37,468 bases of DNA from IMG/VR virus record IMGVR_UViG_3300037423_002659, positions 1-37,468 of that record. One strand, given 5' to 3'. Shown here in pieces: positions 5,275 to 34,452 of the stretch. Under the pieces are notes generated by a model, which had not been told where the DNA came from, did not search any database, and saw only the letters and a program-made list of their open reading frames with translations. Origin of the DNA: a virus. Lineage: Duplodnaviria; Caudoviricetes. Made by a program: the position numbers and the translations under genes. Each line of letters starts with the position of its first letter. Position 1 is the first letter of the stretch.

Positions 5275-5297
5275 GGCTATCTTGGTAACCATTGAAA

Positions 5298-5747
5298 ATG
5301 TCGGGCAAAAAGAAAAAAACCATTCTTGCAGAAAACGTTTCACGCCTCCGCAAACAAAAGGGGTGGACGGCGGAAGTGTTGGCTGAAAAGGCGGGCATTC
5401 CCTACCCAACGCTTCGAGACATCGAGGCAGGCATTTCAAATGGACGCGCGAACACTGTTTTGAATATCGCAAGCGCGCTTGGCATTGATGCCAATCAACT
5501 TCGGTGGGATAGCCGAAAAGGCCAGCTCCCCAACCAATTCGAACACCGGAAAGCATTTCCTCTCAGCGATCGAGTCGTCTACGAGGGACCTACGGCCGCC
5601 GATGTCGCCGAGATCGTAAAGCAACTGATATTGGTATCACCTGCGCGACGTGCCCTGATTCTTGCGGTACTTTTTGAAGAACCCTCTCTTCTTGACGGTT
5701 TCCCTGATCTTGAGCCGTTCCTTCAAGCCGTCCCAGGCGTCCCCTAA
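5298..5747 (+). CDS. CI-like XRE repressor
   Basis: LAENVSRLRKQKGWTAEVLAEKAGIPYPTLRDIEAG HTH; divergent orientation; no S24 peptidase domain recognised. Confidence 0.8.
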   Translation: MSGKKKKTILAENVSRLRKQKGWTAEVLAEKAGIPYPTLRDIEAGISNGRANTVLNIASALGIDANQLRWDSRKGQLPNQFEHRKAFPLSDRVVYEGPTAADVAEIVKQLILVSPARRALILAVLFEEPSLLDGFPDLEPFLQAVPGVP

Positions 5748-8569: not shown

Positions 8570-8815
8570 TCACTTGCCGTCGCCGTCAAGATCGAGCTTC
8601 TCGATCAGCGGAATCACCATGGGATCAAGCTGATCGTAAAAGGGCGCGACTACGTCGTCGATCTTGGTCTCGGATACCACCGCTGACTCTTTTGCCCACT
8701 GCTTAAACGCCTGGTACACCTTTGCGCCAGCATGCTCCAGCGCCTCTTCAGCGATCGGGAGGCCTGCGGCCTTCAGTTTGAGACCGAGGTCCTTCAGGTC
8801 ATACGCCTTTTCCAT
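8570..8815 (-). CDS. Hypothetical protein, lysis region
   Basis: RBS AGGAGAG, 81 aa, tightly packed. Confidence 0.7.
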   Translation of the reverse strand: MEKAYDLKDLGLKLKAAGLPIAEEALEHAGAKVYQAFKQWAKESAVVSETKIDDVVAPFYDQLDPMVIPLIEKLDLDGDGK

Positions 8816-8999
8816 CGTTTCTCTCCTTTTGGATGAGCCGCACGATCACCGCGACGGCTATTGTGGCGAAGATTGAGAGAATCGAGGAAGCACCGCCCGG
8901 ACGCTTTCGCCCGAGCCACGCTTCAAAGAGAAGAAATGGAAGCAGCATCAGAGCGTGAAACCACAAAGGCGCGTTCTGAACGCACTGAAGCTGATCCAA
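8799..8999 (-). CDS. Holin-like small membrane protein
   Basis: Two hydrophobic segments, charged C-terminus, TTG start after GAGGAG; first gene of the lysis cassette. Confidence 0.55.
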   Translation of the reverse strand: MDQLQCVQNAPLWFHALMLLPFLLFEAWLGRKRPGGASSILSIFATIAVAVIVRLIQKERNDGKGV

Positions 9000-9082
9000 G
9001 GATGCTCCTCGACCGAGGAGCCGGGATATTGCGGGTGGTTCAAGATTATGAGCCGGTCAACTCGTGGTCAACCGGCCCTAGA

Positions 9083-13941: not shown

Positions 13942-14340
13942 TTACCCCAAAAGAATGATAAGCGAGCACCACGCCTTCGTAGCCGAGGTACCGCCGTCGA
14001 AATTGAAATTTACATCGATGCTTCGATCGTCGTTTCGTGCCCACTTGAACTTGTCGACCGAGAGTCCACCTGAATCGATCGGTATGACACCCTTCACGCT
14101 CAAGTTCCGAGCCCCAGTCGGAAACGGGTTGATCGACTGATCCACATCGTGAGTGAATTGCAGTCGTACGATCTTGCAGAGCACGTTGTCCTCGAACGTC
14201 ACCCCGTTCTGAAGAGTGTTGCCGACCTTTTCAATGAACTGGTTGAGCGGGTCCAGAAGAGCATCAATCCACTTCGGAATGTCCCCTCCGCCCTTCGCCA
14301 GATCCTGTCGATCGATTCGTTTGAGCGTGCCAAGTTTCAT
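13942..14340 (-). CDS. Hypothetical tail-associated protein (from MKLGTL)
   Basis: ATGA overlap with the upstream stop; synteny. Confidence 0.65.
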   Translation of the reverse strand: MKLGTLKRIDRQDLAKGGGDIPKWIDALLDPLNQFIEKVGNTLQNGVTFEDNVLCKIVRLQFTHDVDQSINPFPTGARNLSVKGVIPIDSGGLSVDKFKWARNDDRSIDVNFNFDGGTSATKAWCSLIILLG

Positions 14341-16835
14341 CGCCCGATCCTCTCTGAGCCAGAGTTGAAGGCAAACGAGCATCCGGCGACGACAAGCTTC
14401 TTTCTTGCCTCAGTGTGTTTCACGCCAAGCGTGAGTCGCGTGCAATACTGCTTGTTCATGGGCGTGTAGGTCGGATATCCGACAGGATCATTTGAACCGC
14501 CCCACGGACTCGAACCCCATGCGGCTCCCCATCCCGACTGCGGCTCTTCAAGATCAACTTCCTCACGCTCGGAATCAAAGTTCGTCCTAAAGGTCATCGT
14601 GAGACGAGATGCTGAGTTATCGCCCATAGTGTCGTCGCTTAGAATTGCCGCCATCCAGACCTGCTTGAGCACGTCGGGTGCACCGGCCGTCCATGGCTGC
14701 CATTCAATATCCATATTCACACCAGGGTACAGCGTTGCCGCTCCCGTGGTCCACGTGCCGGGAATGTTTGAATCGACAGTCGCGCGCCAACCTACAGTGA
14801 GCGGCGTGATCTCGGTGATCACAAGATCCGTGGTGCCCTGAGAGATAACCCATCCAACCAGCGGCGTGACAACCGTCGCAATCGTGAAATCGAGTGTGTC
14901 GGTGCCGAGAGCCGATATCGTGATCGAGTACTCGGGATCGGCGAAGTCTGAGTCGTCAAACGCTTTACGTTCGATGTACAGATTCGTATCCGAAGGCTTC
15001 GCGAAATACATTTTATCGACGCTTGCTTCAACTATTCCCGCAGCGAATCCATAGGTGTGCGGAACCCACGTGCGCGTGATGTAGTTGTAGACAAACGTCT
15101 GCGAAGCAACTGTTCCTGACGCACTCGAAATCGTCGAGAGGTAGTACATCCGTTCCGACTCGTACGCGATGGCCGAGGTGTAATCCTTGAGGCTCGAGTT
15201 TGTCAGAAGCGGCGTGAGAAGCTGCTCGATATCGTGCGAGACAACTTGAATGCCACTCTCGGTGATTGCCACGACACCTTGGTTTGAGAGCATGAACACC
15301 TGGTTTGCAAGCACCACCGCAGAATTCGGCGCCCGGCAATACACCGTCGTATCAACCGGGACTACCGAGAAGCTCGACGGAGTTTCACCGGTAATTCGGT
15401 AAACACCTTCTTCTTTGATCACGATGGCCGACTCGCGAAGAGCCAGAATCCGGAGGATCTCCTTGTTTGAAGGCCCCACAGGGAGCTTGTTCAAAATAGG
15501 GACATGCTCAGGCTGCTGAGACTTCGCGTAATAAACCATGTTCTTTTCGACCTGATTGGAGCTCGTCGATTTTGTGTTCGTCGACGGACTCACCGGAGGT
15601 GCAGGAAAGAACATCCCGGAGATGGCTGTGTCAGACGCTTGTAGTGTGAACGCCGATGCGCCGACACCTTTCTCCTCGATCATGATTTGACCAGGGAGCT
15701 CCTCAGGTCCCGTGAGGTAGTACGCGTAGACACTCGTGTTCGAGGCATAGCGGTTGATCACGCGTACAAATGATCGCGCAGTTGCGTCGATGTCGAATGC
15801 CGCAACGCCAGTCGCCGAAACAGCTGCCTGAGGACTTCCACCACCGGAGATGATCTCAGATGCGCCGAAGTTATAGGTCACTCCACCCAACGTGATGGTC
15901 TTGCCGCTGAGGCTGCCCGTTCCGACGAGCGTTACGAAGAGCCGCTGCTTCGTCTGGGTGTTCGCATAGAGCATGTAATTGGTCTTGTAGAGCGCAATGT
16001 CCTTACAAAGCGGCGGACGCTCGTTTGCTTGCGCGATTCCTTCCTGCGACGGGCTCGTGTAGAGCGTAGCACCTCTTAAAGTATCGACAATCGAGTCAGT
16101 GAAGGTCACATAACCAGTCGAAATGTCAGACGAGGTGAGTTCGTACTGATAAACAAGCCCCATTTCATCGCCGGAGTCGTCCGAACTCGTGCCGGAGACC
16201 TGTTCCGTGCGGAAAAACTGAATCACATCGCCTGCGGCGGCTTCGCTTGGCAGGTATTCCGTCAAAATCACGTTTCTCGCGCCACCAGCCGAGTTCGGCA
16301 CCCATAAACGCTGGCTTGGATATCCCGTGATCACGTTGTTTTGCGCATCGGTGCGCACAATCACGCTTCGATAGGCGCACTGGTAGCCGTTTGCGAGAAA
16401 TCCGGTCGCTCCCGTGAGCGTGTAGCTCGGATCGAGAGCTCGAGGAGCTCCGGCAAGGCGCCCAGCCGTGCCTGCGATGTCGGAGAAGACCTTCACACCG
16501 AGCGATGTCGTGGCATAGAGGTTTGAAAACGCCTCCACCCCTCGCATCGTCTGCCCGGAAGGTGCCGTGTATGAACCGGAGTAGCTCGAAAATGAACCAG
16601 CTCCGTCGTCATATGCGAGCACTGATCCTCGATTCACGAGAACGCGATTCTGATACGTGAGAAGCGCGAGCGCCTGGCTCGCGAGCGCAGAATAAACCTT
16701 ATGACCGCGGCGATTTTCGAGAATATTCTCTCGACGATTTACGCAGTCGTTGGCCTTCAGAAGCGCGCCTGGCGCTACTGTGAGCGGATTGTACTGGGCT
16801 ACAAGCCCTAAGCACTTCGTGATTCTGTCTTGCAC
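14337..16835 (-). CDS. Tail nozzle / tubular protein B-like (P22 gp10-like)
   Basis: 832 aa beta-rich protein following the adaptor-like gene; size and position typical. Confidence 0.7.
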   Translation of the reverse strand: MQDRITKCLGLVAQYNPLTVAPGALLKANDCVNRRENILENRRGHKVYSALASQALALLTYQNRVLVNRGSVLAYDDGAGSFSSYSGSYTAPSGQTMRGVEAFSNLYATTSLGVKVFSDIAGTAGRLAGAPRALDPSYTLTGATGFLANGYQCAYRSVIVRTDAQNNVITGYPSQRLWVPNSAGGARNVILTEYLPSEAAAGDVIQFFRTEQVSGTSSDDSGDEMGLVYQYELTSSDISTGYVTFTDSIVDTLRGATLYTSPSQEGIAQANERPPLCKDIALYKTNYMLYANTQTKQRLFVTLVGTGSLSGKTITLGGVTYNFGASEIISGGGSPQAAVSATGVAAFDIDATARSFVRVINRYASNTSVYAYYLTGPEELPGQIMIEEKGVGASAFTLQASDTAISGMFFPAPPVSPSTNTKSTSSNQVEKNMVYYAKSQQPEHVPILNKLPVGPSNKEILRILALRESAIVIKEEGVYRITGETPSSFSVVPVDTTVYCRAPNSAVVLANQVFMLSNQGVVAITESGIQVVSHDIEQLLTPLLTNSSLKDYTSAIAYESERMYYLSTISSASGTVASQTFVYNYITRTWVPHTYGFAAGIVEASVDKMYFAKPSDTNLYIERKAFDDSDFADPEYSITISALGTDTLDFTIATVVTPLVGWVISQGTTDLVITEITPLTVGWRATVDSNIPGTWTTGAATLYPGVNMDIEWQPWTAGAPDVLKQVWMAAILSDDTMGDNSASRLTMTFRTNFDSEREEVDLEEPQSGWGAAWGSSPWGGSNDPVGYPTYTPMNKQYCTRLTLGVKHTEARKKLVVAGCSFAFNSGSERIGR

Positions 16836-16886
16836 GTCTCACGAGCCTAGGAGCCGGGAACAAATCAAGCGGGTAAAAAAATCTTA

Positions 16887-21538: not shown

Positions 21539-21562
21539 AAATAAGACTCCTCATATGAGCCA

Positions 21563-21595
21563 GGGAGCGGGTGCCCCTTTCAGGGCCCCGCTCTC
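21563..21595 (-). terminator. GC-rich hairpin after the capsid gene (no U-tract; attenuator or stabiliser)
   Basis: GAGAGCGGGGCCC-TGAAA-GGGGCACCCGCTCCC. Confidence 0.4.
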
Positions 21596-21615
21596 TGATG
21601 TTTTGTGGTTCAGGA

Positions 21616-22839
21616 TCAGACGGTCGTGTTCACGATGCCCGTGAACAGGATGTTCTGTGCGGGGGTCTCGGAGATGATGCCCTGGTTGGTGTAGATACGA
21701 GCCTCAACACCAGCCTTCGACTGGAGATGGAACCAGGGAGTGCCGCCGAAGCCAGGAGCGCCAAGCTCGAGGTCGACAGAGCCCACGCGGCGCCAGCCAG
21801 GCGTGAAGACAGCGTGTCCAAAGCCCTCTTTCACCATCGGGTGAGAGTGGACAACGGTTACGCCGTTCTGCGAGCGGTACTCGATCTCCTCGGTACCGAT
21901 CGAGACCTTGCGAACATCCTTTTCAGACGTAACGCGAAGAGCTTCGATCGAAGTCTGGAGGTCGTCCCATGCGCCCGGGTTCAAGAAGAGGTCGATCTTG
22001 CCGTAAAGGCCCTTACCGACCGCCTTCGAGATGCCCTTTTTCAGAGCGCCGAACGAGAATGCACCGCCGACAGCGTGGCTTGTGCCCTTCCAGAGCGAAT
22101 AGGTCGCTGCATCAATGCCGAAGAGCGAGCCCGTGTTGTTCTGGATGTAATGGATGCCGAGCAGTTCGTTGCCGTATCCACCTTTCACGCGGATCACGTC
22201 GCCCGCAGCGCAGCCAGTGACTGTGCCCGAGAGCGTGATCTTCTTGTTCTCGATATCGACGCCCGCGATCGTGACGGTGCCACGAACAGTCGAGGTCGTG
22301 CTCTGGTGAACGTCGATCTCAGCGCCTTCAAGGCCAGCCCAGATCTGCGGCGCCCACTGCGCGGTGGTGATGACAACCGACGGATCGCCCGAGGTGTAGG
22401 TGCCAACAGTTCCGATGCCCATGCCGCCGTAAAGGAGCATCGTCTCAAGTCGCTTGCGCGCCGAGAGCTGCAGGCCTTCGTAGAAAAACTCGGTACCGTT
22501 GACGAACGAGCGCTCACCTTTTACGGCTTTGCCAGCATCCTCGTACGACATCTGATCGCGGAGCAGGATCTGATAAGGATCCATCTCGGCGTTCTTCTGT
22601 GTACCGGCCTTCGCGTCATTCAGCGAGAACGCTCCCGCGGTGCCGTCGCCTTTCGCGTGGGTGAAGCCGTTCGGGTACGCGAGGCGCACGCCAACGACGA
22701 ACTTGGAGCCGAGCTTCTCCTTTTCAGAGAAAGGGATCAGCTTTTGGATCTTCGCCACTTCCGGGATGAGGTTCGGAAGCGGGCGCTTCGAGTACACTTT
22801 TTTGTGAAGACTATTTAGATCCTCTACAACGTCAGCCAT
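21616..22839 (-). CDS. Major capsid protein
   Basis: 407 aa after portal and scaffold; LFGIDAATYSLWKG motif typical of this P22-coat-like group. Confidence 0.8.
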   Translation of the reverse strand: MADVVEDLNSLHKKVYSKRPLPNLIPEVAKIQKLIPFSEKEKLGSKFVVGVRLAYPNGFTHAKGDGTAGAFSLNDAKAGTQKNAEMDPYQILLRDQMSYEDAGKAVKGERSFVNGTEFFYEGLQLSARKRLETMLLYGGMGIGTVGTYTSGDPSVVITTAQWAPQIWAGLEGAEIDVHQSTTSTVRGTVTIAGVDIENKKITLSGTVTGCAAGDVIRVKGGYGNELLGIHYIQNNTGSLFGIDAATYSLWKGTSHAVGGAFSFGALKKGISKAVGKGLYGKIDLFLNPGAWDDLQTSIEALRVTSEKDVRKVSIGTEEIEYRSQNGVTVVHSHPMVKEGFGHAVFTPGWRRVGSVDLELGAPGFGGTPWFHLQSKAGVEARIYTNQGIISETPAQNILFTGIVNTTV

Positions 22840-22938
22840 TGAAAACTCCTGAGTGAATCCTCCGGAGCCGGCTGAAGGCGTTGTAAATCTTGAAGCTCGA
22901 TACGAGTGCGGGATCGCCTCGAGCGATTAATTTTTTTG

Positions 22939-24009
22939 TCAGTCCCTGAGATCGTCACGGAGAGACTTTAGGTACTCTCGGTACTCGAACTCATTCATGG
23001 GTTTTGATTTCTGGATCTTGTGGCTTGCAGGCTGATTGCCTGGGCGCTGCTGGTCCTTCTGATTAGGTACCGAGGACCGACCGGTCACACGGGCCACATC
23101 GAAGTCGCGAAGTTTCTGAAGGGTCTGCTTCCCGAGAACTTCTTGGATACCCTGCGGGTCCATCGACTCGAGAATTTCAGATACCGACTTCAGAAAGTCT
23201 TTCTTAACGATAGCAGCAGCCTCCTTTGCCTGTAAAGGCTGTTTCGTGCGCCGCTGGTGCGAGAGAATCGTCGCCGCCATAAGTTGCACGAAGTACTTGT
23301 GTTTCGGGAGGCCAGATTCTTTCCAAGCTCCGCCAATCTCGGAGTCGAGTGTCTCCTGCTCTTTCGCGTTCACCTGCTTTTGACTGTCGAGAATTTCAAG
23401 AAGCCGCTCTTTAGGTAGACGCTTAATCTCTTCCGGCGCCTTTGATCCGACGAGCTCTTCAATTTGCGAGATGAGTTCAGCCTTCGACTGCATCTCAGCG
23501 CGCTCGCGGTTTTCCTTCTCTTCTTTCAGTTCTGCGAGCTCGCGTTGCTCCGGCGTCATCTGCGCACGCTCGTACTTTCGAGCAAGCCGATTCTCAGCGA
23601 AAGTGTCGGCATCAAGGCCGGTCAGCTCAAAGAACTTGTCAGGGTCGTCCTTCGCAAGCTGAACGAGAGCAGCAGCACGTTTTCTCTCCTGTGCTGCCTC
23701 CTGCATCCGCTTTTGCGAGACCTGCTCGAGCTGCACGCGCTTGAGCGCCTCTCGAACGCTCATTTTCTCAACCTTGCCGTCAAGCTTCACCGTCACGAGC
23801 GCGTCGAGATCTTGCTCGCCGAGCTCTTTCAGTTGTTGCTTTGCGGACTTCTGAGTCGCTTTCTTCTGAGTTTGGCTCGCGCCTGAGTCCTCTTGGATCT
23901 CTTGCGCGTCCGCGCTGTCGTTCTCGAGCGATTCATTGTCGATTTCGGTCGTCTCGAGTGATTCGTCGCTCGATTCGGCCGGAGTTGCGTCCATGGCTGC
24001 TTCTGCCAT
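22939..24009 (-). CDS. Scaffolding protein
   Basis: Acidic N-terminus, VKLDGKVEKMS motif, coiled coils; between portal and capsid. Confidence 0.75.
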   Translation of the reverse strand: MAEAAMDATPAESSDESLETTEIDNESLENDSADAQEIQEDSGASQTQKKATQKSAKQQLKELGEQDLDALVTVKLDGKVEKMSVREALKRVQLEQVSQKRMQEAAQERKRAAALVQLAKDDPDKFFELTGLDADTFAENRLARKYERAQMTPEQRELAELKEEKENRERAEMQSKAELISQIEELVGSKAPEEIKRLPKERLLEILDSQKQVNAKEQETLDSEIGGAWKESGLPKHKYFVQLMAATILSHQRRTKQPLQAKEAAAIVKKDFLKSVSEILESMDPQGIQEVLGKQTLQKLRDFDVARVTGRSSVPNQKDQQRPGNQPASHKIQKSKPMNEFEYREYLKSLRDDLRD

Positions 24010-28589: not shown

Positions 28590-28611
28590 ACTCGCCTCCT
28601 ATCAGTTTAAG

Positions 28612-28692
28612 TGGCTCAGGTCGGACTCGAACCGACAATGCTTGCGCGACGGCTTTTGAGGCCGCTGAGTTTACCTTCTTCTCCACTGAGCC
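28612..28692 (-). tRNA. tRNA-Leu(CAA)
   Basis: GGCTCAG/CTGAGCC acceptor, anticodon loop CT-CAA-AA, variable arm, GTCGG-TTCGAGT-CCGAC, discriminator A; CCA not encoded. Confidence 0.9.
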
Positions 28693-30578: not shown

Positions 30579-31783
30579 TTTTCTTCTCCGTTTCCTTCAG
30601 GCCACACTTGCTCGAATTCAATCCGGCGTTCAGCGATCTCAAAGTATTGCGGATCTCGCTCGATGCCGATGAAATCAAAGCCCTCTTTTGCGCACGCGAC
30701 ACCTGTCGTACCGCTACCCATGAATGGGTCGAGGCATACGCCGCCTTTTGGAGTCACGAGACGCACGAGGTATTGCATGAGTTTTACGGGTTTCACGGTT
30801 GGATGCAGATTGTCTTTTCCGCGCTCGCCTTTCGAAGCTTTCGCCACATAGAAAAAGCGAGAGGCGCCAATTTTATCGCCATCATCAAGGCGTCGTACGT
30901 TGTGTTTAGCCCCCATATGATAAGCGGCTGAATCTTTGCGAGCCTCCGACTCAATCCATTTATCCCGAGCCTTCCCGGCCGAATGAATGCCACCCGCAAT
31001 ACTCTGCGCATCGAGCATTTCCGCCGCCGTCTCGTCTAGCAGAACATTGCTCGGGAAGCGGCCGAGAGCGTGTTGCTCACATAAAATGCCCTTTGCACCA
31101 TTTCCTTGAGTGAGTCCATTCATCAATTTGCCAGACCCTATTGACAGCTTCTCCGACGTCTCAATCCGGCACCCATCGATATTCAAACCGCCGCAGCCGT
31201 ACTTCAGCACATTCGCCGCGATAGTTCCTTCGACCGGCTTTCTCGCGAGCACGATTGGTTCATTCGCTGGCTTTAAGGCTGTGCCCCAGCCAGACCAATG
31301 TTTCGCTTCGGGCGTTGCAGGCGCGGTGATGACTAGATTTGAGTCGCGCGAAATCGGATCAGCAAAAGTTGAGTTGCCACCTAGCTTTTGTGTCTTCCTA
31401 GCTTTTGAACCGTCCGCAAAAGTCTTATCACCAATCACTTCCCGCTCAGCCCCAGCCGCTTTATCAATCGCCTTCGAAATATCGAGCGACTTCGGGAATC
31501 CCTGACCGTAAATCCATTGAAGCTGATCGCGAATCTCGAAACCCGCATCCTCAATTCGCACAACGCCGCGATGATAGGTGCGCGTCCCGAAGTACGCGAG
31601 AAGGTGCCCGCCCGGTTTCAGTACGCGTATGCACTCGCGCCATACTTCGACTGAAGGCACGTCGTAATCCCATTTCTTTCCCATGAACGCGAGGCCATAA
31701 GGCGGATCAGTTACGACGCTATCGACTGAGTTGTCAGGGAGGGTTTTGAGTTGCTCTAAGCAGTCACCGAGGAGAAGTTTCAT
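30575..31783 (-). CDS. DNA N6-adenine/N4-cytosine methyltransferase (beta class)
   Basis: VTDPPY catalytic motif before HPTVKP and DPFMGSGTTG SAM-binding motif. Confidence 0.93.
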   Translation of the reverse strand: MKLLLGDCLEQLKTLPDNSVDSVVTDPPYGLAFMGKKWDYDVPSVEVWRECIRVLKPGGHLLAYFGTRTYHRGVVRIEDAGFEIRDQLQWIYGQGFPKSLDISKAIDKAAGAEREVIGDKTFADGSKARKTQKLGGNSTFADPISRDSNLVITAPATPEAKHWSGWGTALKPANEPIVLARKPVEGTIAANVLKYGCGGLNIDGCRIETSEKLSIGSGKLMNGLTQGNGAKGILCEQHALGRFPSNVLLDETAAEMLDAQSIAGGIHSAGKARDKWIESEARKDSAAYHMGAKHNVRRLDDGDKIGASRFFYVAKASKGERGKDNLHPTVKPVKLMQYLVRLVTPKGGVCLDPFMGSGTTGVACAKEGFDFIGIERDPQYFEIAERRIEFEQVWPEGNGEEK

Positions 31784-32268
31784 TTCTCTCCCCTTGCTAT
31801 GCGAATCACTTCGATGAGTTTTTCAGCTGAAAGATCGAGTTTCAGCGGTGCCGAATCTTCACCGCCGCCTTCGAGAGCCATCTGATGCTTGTCTCGCCAC
31901 TCATCGGGCTTCCGATTCTTGAGCCAGAAGATCGCTGCTGTAACATCAGGCGGATATTGCTTCATCGTCTCGTGAGTGATGATCATGCCTTCGTGACAGA
32001 ACACCTTCTCTTCACGATGGGAGTAGCCGACCGCGCGGGAAAAGAGAGAAGCTTCGACCAAATCGTCTGCGACCTGCTTCGATTCGTTTAGGGCCCACAT
32101 AAAGTCGGGATGCTTGCCCTTCCAGTTGCGAAGCGTGTTGACATGGATGCCAATAATCTCGGCGATTTGTTCCTCAGTCTTGCCTGCAGAGCCGAGCTCA
32201 AGAATTTTTTCCTTCACTGCCACATTAAATTTGCTGGGCCGGCCGATCGGATTTCGCTCTTCGCTCAT
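31780..32268 (-). CDS. terS: Terminase small subunit
   Basis: GRPSKF, HTH, SLFSRAVGY, PPDVTAAIFWLKNRKPDEWRDK. Confidence 0.88.
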   Translation of the reverse strand: MSEERNPIGRPSKFNVAVKEKILELGSAGKTEEQIAEIIGIHVNTLRNWKGKHPDFMWALNESKQVADDLVEASLFSRAVGYSHREEKVFCHEGMIITHETMKQYPPDVTAAIFWLKNRKPDEWRDKHQMALEGGGEDSAPLKLDLSAEKLIEVIRIARGEK

Positions 32269-32498
32269 CGTCCGATTCCTCTCGTGAGAGCGAGGCCGTC
32301 AATGCGATCCTTGAGCGCCAGGATCTTCTTCTCGAGCTCGACGATCTGCTGAGTGCGCTCACGCTCAATGAAATGAAGGAACCCGAAGAGAGCGCACGCA
32401 ACAGCAAAGGCAAGAGCCGTGGGATAGCTCGGAGCGAGCGCCAGGGCGAGAGCCGCTCCGCAGATCACGGCGGCAGAGAAGTGAAACTTGAATTCCAT
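32265..32498 (-). CDS. Small membrane protein (from MEFKFH)
   Basis: RBS GGAGG; two hydrophobic segments plus coiled coil. Confidence 0.65.
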   Translation of the reverse strand: MEFKFHFSAAVICGAALALALAPSYPTALAFAVACALFGFLHFIERERTQQIVELEKKILALKDRIDGLALTRGIGR

Positions 32499-32514
32499 TG
32501 AGCCTCCGGAGAAG

Positions 32515-32590
32515 TGGCTGCGGGACCTGGGCTCGAACCAGGAACCTTCTGAGTCAAAGTCAGCTGATCTACCAATTGATCTATCCCGCA
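32515..32590 (-). tRNA. tRNA-Gln(UUG)
   Basis: TGCGGGA/TCCCGCA acceptor, D-arm GATC, loop CT-TTG-AC, CCTGG-TTCGAGC-CCAGG, G-CCA end encoded. Confidence 0.92.
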
Positions 32591-32597
32591 TCTAACG

Positions 32598-32767
32598 CGC
32601 ACCAGGAGGGACGAGCGAACTCCCGGCTCCCCTATGGGGTGATGTTCGCCCTTCCCTTGAGCTACGACTTCAGCTCCGGAGCCCGCACTCCGCCCTTGGG
32701 CTCATTCGACCGGAGCCAATTCGGAAGCTGAAGGCTTCTCTTGCTCTTCTCTCATGCTTCTGGTGCG
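32598..32767 (-). ncRNA. Putative multi-stem small RNA at the head of the late operon
   Basis: Closing stem CGCACCAG/CTGGTGCG; inner stems CTTCAGCT/AGCTGAAG, GAGCCC/GGGCTC, AGGGA/TCCCT, GGGCGAAC/GTTCGCTC; seeds complementary to late-gene leaders. Confidence 0.65.
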
Positions 32768-32818: not shown

Positions 32819-33019
32819 ATGCAAAACGACATTCCTCGAATAAAGAAAGCCGTGCTCACGCAAAAGCTGAACATCGCCGTCGATGAGTCGACGAAGTCCG
32901 ACTACGACACCTTGAAGTCACGGCATGGGATTGATGTAGCTGAGTGTGTGCGCTCGGCCGTGCGCCGAGAGATCAAACGCCTGAAGGCGATCGTCGCTGA
33001 AGAGAATCAGTCCGCTTGA
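32819..33019 (+). CDS. Ribbon-helix-helix-like small DNA-binding protein
   Basis: KLNIAVD beta strand followed by two helices; own terminator downstream. Confidence 0.6.
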   Translation: MQNDIPRIKKAVLTQKLNIAVDESTKSDYDTLKSRHGIDVAECVRSAVRREIKRLKAIVAEENQSA

Positions 33020-33069
33020 CGACCACGCTCGAGAGATCGAGCATTGAACCTGTCCGGAGAGTCGCCTAG

Positions 33070-33097
33070 GGCCGCAGCATGGGGTTGCGGCCTTTTT
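33070..33097 (+). terminator. Rho-independent terminator
   Basis: GGCCGCAGC-ATGGG-GTTGCGGCC-TTTTT. Confidence 0.75.
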
Positions 33098-33669
33098 CAT
33101 TTCCGCGATTCTTTCAAACGCTTGATTTCATCCTCAAGCACCTTGATACGGACCTTCTTCAAGTTGAGATCGACCTCCAGCTTCCAGATCCGTGCGCTCA
33201 TCAACTCAGTTCCGGCCTTGTGTCCTGCACACCAAATTCGGTCTGTTTCCGCATCTCTCTTACTCTCATCGCCAGTCCGTAAGTTAGATCGCAAGAGGCC
33301 CGATCCCGTGTTTTGGTCTAGGCACTTCTGCCAGCCAGACTTGAACGCCTTTTCAGCAATGAACCTAGGGTCACTCCAAAAGTTCGTCGTGAGCATTTCG
33401 ATCTGCTGCTGGTTTTCAGGTTCGTTCCAAATCTCTTCCACCGACACGGGGGCGACGGGGTTTCTCTCGGGGAGGGCATTCGTTCTGCTGGCTTCCTCTG
33501 CCGCGAGATAGCCACGGCAAAACGCTTGGTACTCGCCAACTGTATAGTCTCCACCATTCTCAGCTTCGTCCTTGTCGGCAGCACGGCAGACGTGCTTTGG
33601 ATGGCTGTATGGGCTATCCAACTCATCCTCGTCGAAGTCTTTGGGGAGGGTTTCTTTCGGTTTACTCAT
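33097..33669 (-). CDS. Hypothetical protein (MSKPKETLP family)
   Basis: RBS GAGGAG; starts inside a junction repeat. Confidence 0.65.
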   Translation of the reverse strand: MSKPKETLPKDFDEDELDSPYSHPKHVCRAADKDEAENGGDYTVGEYQAFCRGYLAAEEASRTNALPERNPVAPVSVEEIWNEPENQQQIEMLTTNFWSDPRFIAEKAFKSGWQKCLDQNTGSGLLRSNLRTGDESKRDAETDRIWCAGHKAGTELMSARIWKLEVDLNLKKVRIKVLEDEIKRLKESRK

Positions 33670-34024
33670 GGGATTTCTCCTCAGCCGTAAGTTGAAACAC
33701 CTTTGGCCAGTTCACCAGCGCCTCGTTCACAAAGTCCAAGGCAACGCCTTCATTTCTTAAAGTCCAATCGAGTTGGTTTTCTGCCAGCTCTTTCGCGGTC
33801 AACAAGAAGTGTTGAGCGTCGATGAGGTTTTTTCTGATTTTTTCCATCTCACTCACCGCCTCGGAGGCGACGGGTTGAGCGGAGGGGGCATTCTCAAACG
33901 CCAGGTCCAATTCCTTTTGCCGAATCTGTCGCTCGTATTCGTGTACGTTCTTCGTCGATAGCTTCTTCGTTGCGAGTTGCTCTCTGAGCCACTGGATTTC
34001 GGTTTCGATTTGTTTCTTATTCAT
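33662..34024 (-). CDS. Hypothetical coiled-coil protein
   Basis: RBS GAGGTG; ends EEKSHE in the junction repeat. Confidence 0.65.
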   Translation of the reverse strand: MNKKQIETEIQWLREQLATKKLSTKNVHEYERQIRQKELDLAFENAPSAQPVASEAVSEMEKIRKNLIDAQHFLLTAKELAENQLDWTLRNEGVALDFVNEALVNWPKVFQLTAEEKSHE

Positions 34025-34065
34025 CACTCACCTCATCGAAGCCACAGGGGAGGGTTTCTTTCGGT

Positions 34066-34452
34066 TTACTCATGGGACTTCTCCTCAATCGTAAGTGTAA
34101 GCCGCCGGTAGTCAGTCCGGGTCGTGCATTGCGTACATTCCTGCCATTCCGATTTTTCGTAGCCATCTTTGAAGTGCGTTACCCATGCTCGACCTTCGCC
34201 TCGGCAGAAGTAGCAATCGGCTTTAGGTTTTCCATCCGCCTCACTCACCGCCACGGGTGCGACAAGGGCTTTCAGTCGATGCGCAATCAACTGCGCTTCC
34301 ATAATGAATTCGAGCGCTGTCATCGCATAGAAATCGACAGGTGTTCCCTTTGTCGCTTCCAAGACCGTAACGATCCAGCGATGGGCGCCGATGAGTTTTT
34401 CTTCTAACTCACTCGCGTCGAAGGTGGGGAGGGTTTCTTTCGAATCACTCAT
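34066..34452 (-). CDS. Hypothetical protein with CxxC-CxxC module
   Basis: CYFCRGEG...CTQC; starts MSDSKETLP and ends EEKSHE. Confidence 0.65.
   Translation of the reverse strand: MSDSKETLPTFDASELEEKLIGAHRWIVTVLEATKGTPVDFYAMTALEFIMEAQLIAHRLKALVAPVAVSEADGKPKADCYFCRGEGRAWVTHFKDGYEKSEWQECTQCTTRTDYRRLTLTIEEKSHE

Follow-up and report, generated by a model that had tools for sequence, protein, structure and literature searches.

A phage four-way-junction RNA as a predicted activator of capsid and other late-gene translation

The major capsid gene of a provirus appeared to be translationally locked by its own leader, and a phage-encoded RNA that folds as a four-way junction is likely to unlock it by base pairing, making it an activator of late-gene translation; this reading was built entirely from comparative and computed evidence. 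The DNA examined (37,468 nucleotides, hereafter 'the window') was a complete provirus record of 37.5 kb, with nearly all genes on the minus strand and a gene set that included integrase, replication, terminase, portal, capsid and lysis-region genes. A first-pass annotation of the window had proposed a dedicated activator for the capsid leader. That proposal gained support; the best-supported activator is the upstream RNA, its activating effect being a prediction from sequence.

The capsid leader and its occlusion

The leader (22840-22938, minus strand) occupied the 99 nt between the stop codon of a scaffold-like gene (22939..24009, minus strand) and the ATG of the capsid gene (21616..22839, minus strand), and contained neither a start codon nor an upstream reading frame. 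The capsid ORF encoded 407 aa and had 258 homologues; its product was a major head protein (PHROG 14242, E = 7.7e-16), in agreement with the first-pass annotation. The scaffold-like gene took its name from its position between portal and capsid, and a family search with it returned no match.

Two short boxes described previously were recovered exactly on the minus (mRNA) strand: box A (CCCGCACTC, 22904-22912), a 9-nt complement of seed A in the upstream RNA, and box B (CCGGCTCC, 22864-22871). The proposed stem, CTCCGGAG-GATTCA-CTCAGGAG, was likewise present, as 8 bp with a single G-A mismatch; the GGAG in it (22849-22846) is separated by 6 nt from the ATG at 22839. Within this inner anti-SD hairpin (22846..22867, minus strand), the 5' arm at 22867-22860 paired with 22853-22846, which holds the SD, and the pair types varied in relatives. 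The complete fold was larger than that first described, since an outer helix (22825..22885, minus strand) paired 22885-22869 with the AUG and first codons (22838-22825), thereby burying both. Box B, the complement of RNA loop 3, was situated at the junction of the anti-AUG and anti-SD arms, while box A was presented by a separate upstream hairpin (22895..22924, minus strand) with seven of its nine nucleotides in the loop, making it a predicted toehold for RNA loop 1. The leader fold had an energy of -45.6 kcal/mol (z = -4.03; none of 200 shuffles was equally stable), and opening the region from -15 to +3 in the window cost 16.6 kcal/mol.

Leaders from relatives were gathered starting from the 258 homologous proteins. 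A locus search with a single protein found nothing and alignments were needed; scanning loci with alignments of capsid, portal and terL, together with whole records, produced 72 distinct leaders with resolved starts (L074 and L080, whose starts could not be resolved, were left out of the counts). These were divided into a close set of 29 leaders, with MCP identity of at least 42.5% (counting L061, a truncated piece of a 38% relative), and a distant set of 43. The median cost of opening the region from SD to start was 10.6 kcal/mol in the close set (n = 29) against 4.5 kcal/mol in the distant set (n = 43), with an excess over composition-matched shuffles of +4.0 and -0.8, respectively. The SD was paired with upstream sequence in 25/29 close and 12/43 distant leaders, and the start codon in 18/29 and 13/43; this contrast and its p-values are descriptive only, because the phages are related and do not represent independent samples. 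A GGA core was present in 26 close leaders and its central G was paired in 22 of these, while the flanking positions -1 and +4 each displayed five pair types when tabulated from individual folds. Among close relatives, therefore, comparison of predicted folds showed that occlusion of the capsid ribosome-binding site (RBS) was conserved while its base pairs changed.

Four leaders (L042, L049, L036 and G013) lacked GGAG at the SD position and sequestered other purine-rich words instead; in L042, L049 and G013 a hairpin still formed over that position despite the difference in sequence. The differing words hint at different hosts or initiation rules. The G003 leader was barely occluded (5.8 kcal/mol). 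Among distant relatives, L019, L097, L122 and L093 had occluded capsid leaders (8.9-12.2 kcal/mol), and no RNA was identified for them.

The RNA and its covariation with the leader

The predicted trans-acting activator is an RNA of 107 nt (32597..32703, minus strand), comprising a closing stem P0 and arms P1-P3, located approximately 9.8 kb upstream of the capsid leader. Seed A (GAGTGCGGG, 32682..32690, minus strand) lay in arm P1 and its loop, and seed B (32620..32632, minus strand) in the P3 loop region, with its core GGAGCCGG at 32623-32630. Outside coding context, GAGTGCGGG and GGAGCCGG each occurred once on the minus strand, in the intergenic region before a tRNA-Gln. This tRNA (32515..32590, minus strand) started 6 nt after the RNA, and its 5' processing could release the RNA 3' end.

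In all nine phages where the RNA was delimited, it had a divergent small ORF on its upstream side and, downstream, a membrane gene with two helices that precedes terS. In the window, the former was a 66-aa RHH-like ORF (32819..33019, plus strand) with two helices in its structure model; it had no Pfam match and nothing significant in Foldseek (weak ParD, E = 3), and is a candidate regulator of the RNA's promoter. The latter encoded a 77-aa protein with two hydrophobic segments (32265..32498, minus strand) and was followed by terS (31780-32268, minus strand). The SD of this membrane gene, after the tRNA-Gln, fell (32498-32520) within a palindrome, CTCCGGAG, that the capsid arm also contains, and the acceptor stem of the tRNA supplied a CCCGCA upstream of that SD; the combination may be coincidence or self-regulation. 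A second tRNA, tRNA-Leu (CAA), was present in the late region (28611-28692).

Complementarity led to four RNAs of the nine (window, L029, L026 and G001) and gene order to the other five (L142, L150, L051, G003 and G013), with ends set by eye when the leaders of the gene-order RNAs had already been seen. For L029, L026 and L006/G001, the search for complements of a phage's own leader revealed a private stretch of 10-11 nt that complements the anti-SD arm and lies 8-10 kb upstream, in non-coding DNA. A tenth RNA, L144, was picked up with a structure descriptor and has both flanking genes beside it. Pairwise identity among the ten was 38-59%, and since BLAST of the window RNA against G001 and G002 found no match, its sequence is not conserved. 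Because MAFFT could not bring the RNAs or the 5' arms into register, base pairs were read from individual folds in place of a covariance model.

Folded alone, each of the nine RNAs produced a closing stem and three arms, with 4-8 G-U pairs. Stability was between z = -1.1 and z = -4.1; the window RNA (z = -1.85) was modest relative to shuffles. The opposite strand was rejected as the RNA, its reverse complement being less stable in 10/10 cases. The RNAs of G003 and L051 had U-rich tails, and those of L029 and G003 contained an extra hairpin in loop 3 ahead of seed B. Close variants from sequencing runs X4 (depth 7) and X5 (depth 2, single contigs) left both seeds unchanged; two of their changes fell in P2 and kept pairing (G-U to G-C, U-A to U-G), two were in a loop and one broke the junction-end pair of P3. 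In run X4 a different tRNA-like sequence followed the RNA.

The three-arm descriptor was not specific by itself, weak examples being found in most control stretches. No clear RNA, or no testable capsid leader, was obtained for L113 (which had an RHH-like match), L070, L072, L074 or L146. L078 (1.9 kcal/mol) and L079/L149 (2.3 kcal/mol) had an open capsid RBS and retained the membrane gene with no recognisable RNA. The capsid RBS was open (4.2 kcal/mol) in a Silvanigrella phage relative (23-31% identity), where no convincing RNA module was found. Comparison with Rfam gave no gathering-score match in the window, none at E <= 10 for the window, G001 and L029, and none at E <= 1 for the L026, L142, L051 and G013 loci, the scans covering seven of the nine RNAs.

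The seed matches in this genome alone could be due to chance, because ten perfect leader complements of 10-12 nt were found in coding DNA of the window; a scan with both seeds placed the RNA fourth genome-wide and first among non-coding sites. Applied without bias, the two-seed scan ranked the true RNA above every other non-coding site in four records (the window, L026, L029 and G001), returned false top non-coding matches in G003 (-7995) and L142 (-7065), and missed the RNA in L150, L051 and G013. The case against chance rests on sequence comparison across relatives. When loops taken from each RNA's own predicted fold were exchanged among leaders in a 9x9 swap, the mean was -34.6 kcal/mol for cognate pairs and -23.3 kcal/mol for non-cognate ones; of 362,880 permutations, the cognate one was the best. 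Loop 3 preferred its own leader in eight of nine phages, but loop 1 (seed A) in only five. Ranked against all 72 leaders, the own leader came first for seven of nine RNAs (L051 ranked 5 and G003 ranked 9); the swap and rank tests are circular for the window, L029, L026 and G001, which were found via complementarity, and the five gene-order RNAs had own-leader ranks of 1, 1, 1, 5 and 9. Shuffles of the own leader reached the observed sum in at most 4 of 200 cases in eight phages and in 19 of 200 in G003, while seed A was not above shuffles in G001 or L051. The L144 RNA, for its part, selected the L037 leader among the 72 through matches of 13 nt and 7 nt (-39.5 against -29.7 for the next), these two being separate contigs that possibly belong to different phages.

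These comparisons of sequence and predicted fold showed that loops 1 and 3 are complementary to the boxes of their own leader, phage by phage. The expectation that both boxes would be conserved was borne out in part: relatives with the RNA kept both boxes, but conservation as fixed sequence was rejected, the boxes being phage-specific and covarying with the RNA loops.

Late targets and predicted opening of the RBS

Exact matches to box B on the mRNA strand of the nine records numbered 27. Nine were the capsid leaders (by construction), and of the remaining 18, 11 belonged to leaders of an approximately 830-aa virion protein (5), scaffold (3) or a small lysis-region gene (3), with 7 elsewhere. 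The seed itself occurred once per record in 8/9. A box-A-like word was usually found just upstream of a box-B match, and in L005 the terL leader carried the box B of the capsid leader. Reuse of phage-specific boxes before two to four late genes in each phage was thus shown at the sequence level.

In the window, the second target (16849..16873, minus strand) combined CCCGC (16873-16869) with a 12-nt seed-B complement (16849-16860) before the GTG of an 832-aa virion protein (14337-16835, minus strand; PHROG 511 and 3287), for which no solved relative was found. The third (8999..9035, minus strand) combined CCCGCA (9035-9030) with a 12-nt seed-B complement (9015-9026) before the TTG of a 66-aa hydrophobic ORF in the lysis region (8799-8999, minus strand); here, the complement formed part of the 5' side of a perfect 7-bp hairpin that covers GAGGAG. 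This ORF was holin-like by position and hydrophobicity only, and had no family above the cut-off. Both 12-nt matches were extended by G-U pairs. After the capsid stop and before a 178-aa gene, a strong hairpin (21545-21615) included CCCGC and an 8-nt seed-B match (21557-21564); it is possibly a weak fourth target (opening cost 7.4 to 5.3 kcal/mol). In G013, box B occurred a fourth time in non-coding DNA, 16530 nt past the capsid start, where it occupied the loop of a hairpin that covers a purine-rich, SD-like word; no standard start codon was close by, and a non-standard start is possible.

The effect of the RNA was approximated by removing box B from the fold. This reduced the cost of opening the window capsid RBS from 16.6 to 6.4 kcal/mol, and lowered it in 8/9 capsid leaders (not G003, 5.8 to 5.8) and in 11/11 other targets, by 2.0-8.0 kcal/mol, a fall to which removal of any upstream stretch might contribute. 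Net energies in the window were -9.1 kcal/mol for seed A, -0.5 for seed B alone and, with initiation, -5.5 for both; pairing of seed A alone did not open the window RBS. Exposing box A cost 2.2 kcal/mol against 13.5 kcal/mol for box B, which suggests docking at A followed by invasion at B. In the sequence of events that we infer, the RNA would be transcribed from a late promoter region that adjoins the divergent RHH-like ORF, and would come free as a discrete species (by tRNA processing in the window, and with the U-rich tails in G003 and L051). Loop 1 would dock on the exposed box A as a toehold, loop 3 would next invade box B and displace the anti-SD/anti-AUG strand, and the 30S subunit would then load, helped by an A/U-rich stretch upstream. 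Capsid, scaffold, tail-region and lysis proteins would be made only after a phage's own RNA had accumulated, and read-through transcripts in the lysogen or in early induction would therefore stay silent.

The pairing might be real and its outcome different, i.e., the RNA might repress, tune stoichiometry, direct cleavage or stabilisation of late mRNAs, or block the ribosome at some targets such as the approximately 830-aa gene. We judge this unlikely. In L051, L150 and G013 box B ended just 13-17 nt before the start, where bound RNA might hinder the ribosome; the predicted gain was small for the 832-aa gene of the window (8.7 to 7.9 or 9.7 to 7.6 kcal/mol) and nil for the G003 capsid gene, and C4 RNA, of similar architecture, is a repressor (PMC5320573). 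Nonetheless, seed B was complementary to the inhibitory anti-SD strand rather than to the SD, and a repressor gains nothing there because the strand it would bind already blocks the RBS; moreover, the opening cost fell in 19/20 targets tested.

It is quite improbable that the element is the 5' domain of a long late transcript, opening the same leaders by pairing in cis over 5-24 kb or between transcript copies. The RNA and all targets did lie on one strand in one gene run, and no terminator-like site was found right after the RNA in the window; but a single copy cannot serve two to four targets simultaneously, the spacing from RNA to capsid gene varied from 5.1 to 9.9 kb, and a closed junction followed by a tRNA or U-run is typical of processed RNAs.

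A timing hairpin of the T4 type, relieved by a late promoter or processing site in the leader, by a protein activator or by scaffold-linked coupling, with the RNA match secondary, would have precedent in the SD/AUG-sequestering helices of T4 e, soc, 49 and I-TevI, which late promoters relieve (PMC3014915), and many leaders had an A/T-rich stretch upstream of the arm. This reading is very improbable. The leaders shared no promoter-like word (the top hexamers were A/T runs in at most 8/29, though a promoter particular to one phage may exist), a sigma-70 scan of the capsid leader gave no match, and the phage-specific covariation with a distant RNA would go unexplained; coupling was rejected for an upstream ORF, given a leader with no start codon and a scaffold stop 99 nt away.

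That the complementarity is chance, a by-product of SD-like GGAG words or of G+C, or belongs to a packaging RNA with loops that pair with each other, is scarcely credible despite equal or longer complements in window coding DNA and the poor specificity of a three-arm fold alone, given the swap test, the own-leader shuffles, the ranks among 72 leaders and several seeds that contain no GGAG. In a phi29-type packaging RNA two loops are complementary to each other; here, pairing between loops 1 and 3 of the same RNA (-6.6) was no better than that across phages (-7.8), and this identity was rejected.

Comparison with known RNAs and implications

The reading preferred here, an RNA that opens late-gene leaders in trans, was compared with known systems. 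The antisense C4 RNA of P1/P7 represses, its b' loop occluding the RBS (PMC5320573), while the CI RNA of P4 causes termination (PMC4825925). Like these, the present RNA is a small phage RNA with three stem-loops, two of which have variable loops; an upstream box that confers specificity would be bound by the first and a site near the RBS by the second, the specificity differs among related phages, and the order A-then-B is the same in RNA and target. The multi-stem junction with two exposed variable loops, a trait of C4, CI and IsrK, was observed in 9/9 predicted folds. C4 and CI maintain lysogeny through antirepressor or replication operons, whereas the targets here were late structural and lysis genes; immunity or antirepressor targets with a second loop covering the RBS, as in C4-type RNAs, were not found. 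Furthermore, loop 3 matches the anti-SD strand, unlike C4, and the predicted effect is activation, i.e., of opposite sign. The adjacent tRNA-Gln is at most suggestive of maturation by RNase P, as in C4-type RNAs.

IsrK, from the Salmonella prophage Gifsy-1, is a trans-acting sRNA that opens an RBS-sequestering structure and activates translation, approximately 140-fold for anrP (PMC4825925). The RNA described here is similarly predicted to open an RBS-sequestering structure of a phage mRNA in trans, but IsrK acts on its own read-through transcript, at one target upstream of an antirepressor, while here two to four distant targets in the virion and lysis regions would be addressed with two short loop seeds. 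PreS/LPR1 of lambda activates host genes by pairing with the RBS-hiding strand (10.1101/2024.10.31.621285), as does DsrA on rpoS (PMC2831331). A seed that pairs with the strand hiding the RBS was shared with both in 8/9 capsid leaders (not G003), and an RBS within an intramolecular helix, the target trait of activating sRNAs, was predicted with covariation; PreS and DsrA, however, have host targets, Hfq and a single seed, whereas the present RNA would act on late genes of the phage itself, with co-evolution of lock and key. As in T4 e, soc, 49 and I-TevI, where early translation is thereby prevented, the SD and AUG of late genes, including a lysis gene, lay in a helix; in T4 the late promoter removes the 5' arm (PMC3014915), whereas here there was a covarying RNA and no shared promoter word.

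The satellite RNA SviR lowers translation of its phage targets (10.1101/2022.04.08.487710). A screen of 10,006 candidates included cis candidates upstream of capsid genes (PMC10690425), and the present RNA might be among them without its targets; three supplements of that study, queried with six dataset ids, gave no match. The word 'capsid' and any such activator were absent from the portion covered of a 2025 review of phage sRNAs (PMC12197685). No description of a late-gene RNA activator of this kind was found in the open-access literature searched. The RNA would work like an anti-antisense activator while being built like C4, and it fell outside every Rfam family tested.

The late-gene switches of tailed phages are classically proteins: antiterminators, late sigma factors and transcription activators. 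Phage sRNAs in the compared literature target lysogeny genes, one antirepressor operon or host genes. We lean slightly towards the view that in this phage family an RNA, not a protein, is the master late switch, with two reprogrammable loops that license translation of capsid, scaffold, tail-region and lysis genes and that are private to their own phage; since lock and key change jointly within a phage, its virion genes would respond to no RNA but its own. If so, the switch would be private and self-recognising, and related phages or satellites could not trip it. The RBSs of capsid, scaffold and lysis-region genes would open as a regulon, i.e., a translational checkpoint in the lytic programme, and a two-loop architecture resembling C4 would be used with opposite sign. 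The phages would be a natural source of ten or more translational activators that are orthogonal to one another; these lock-and-key variants are candidates for orthogonal gene switches, and the claim can be tested by swapping. 

Scans of genome contigs with capsid and terL alignments gave no prophage. Elsewhere in the window, an HTH_3 repressor-like gene (5292-5747, plus strand) was located opposite the early operon. A long tandem repeat with 6/12/18-nt units (1812-2137) corresponded to a Gly-rich stretch of a 129-aa ORF (1694-2083). Three tandem genes (33097-34452) were almost the same at their 5' ends and in internal blocks (repeat families D6-D8), resembling a triplication. Where the RHH-like gene and the upstream operon converge, an 11-bp hairpin with T and A runs on either side (33068-33094) is probably a two-way terminator.
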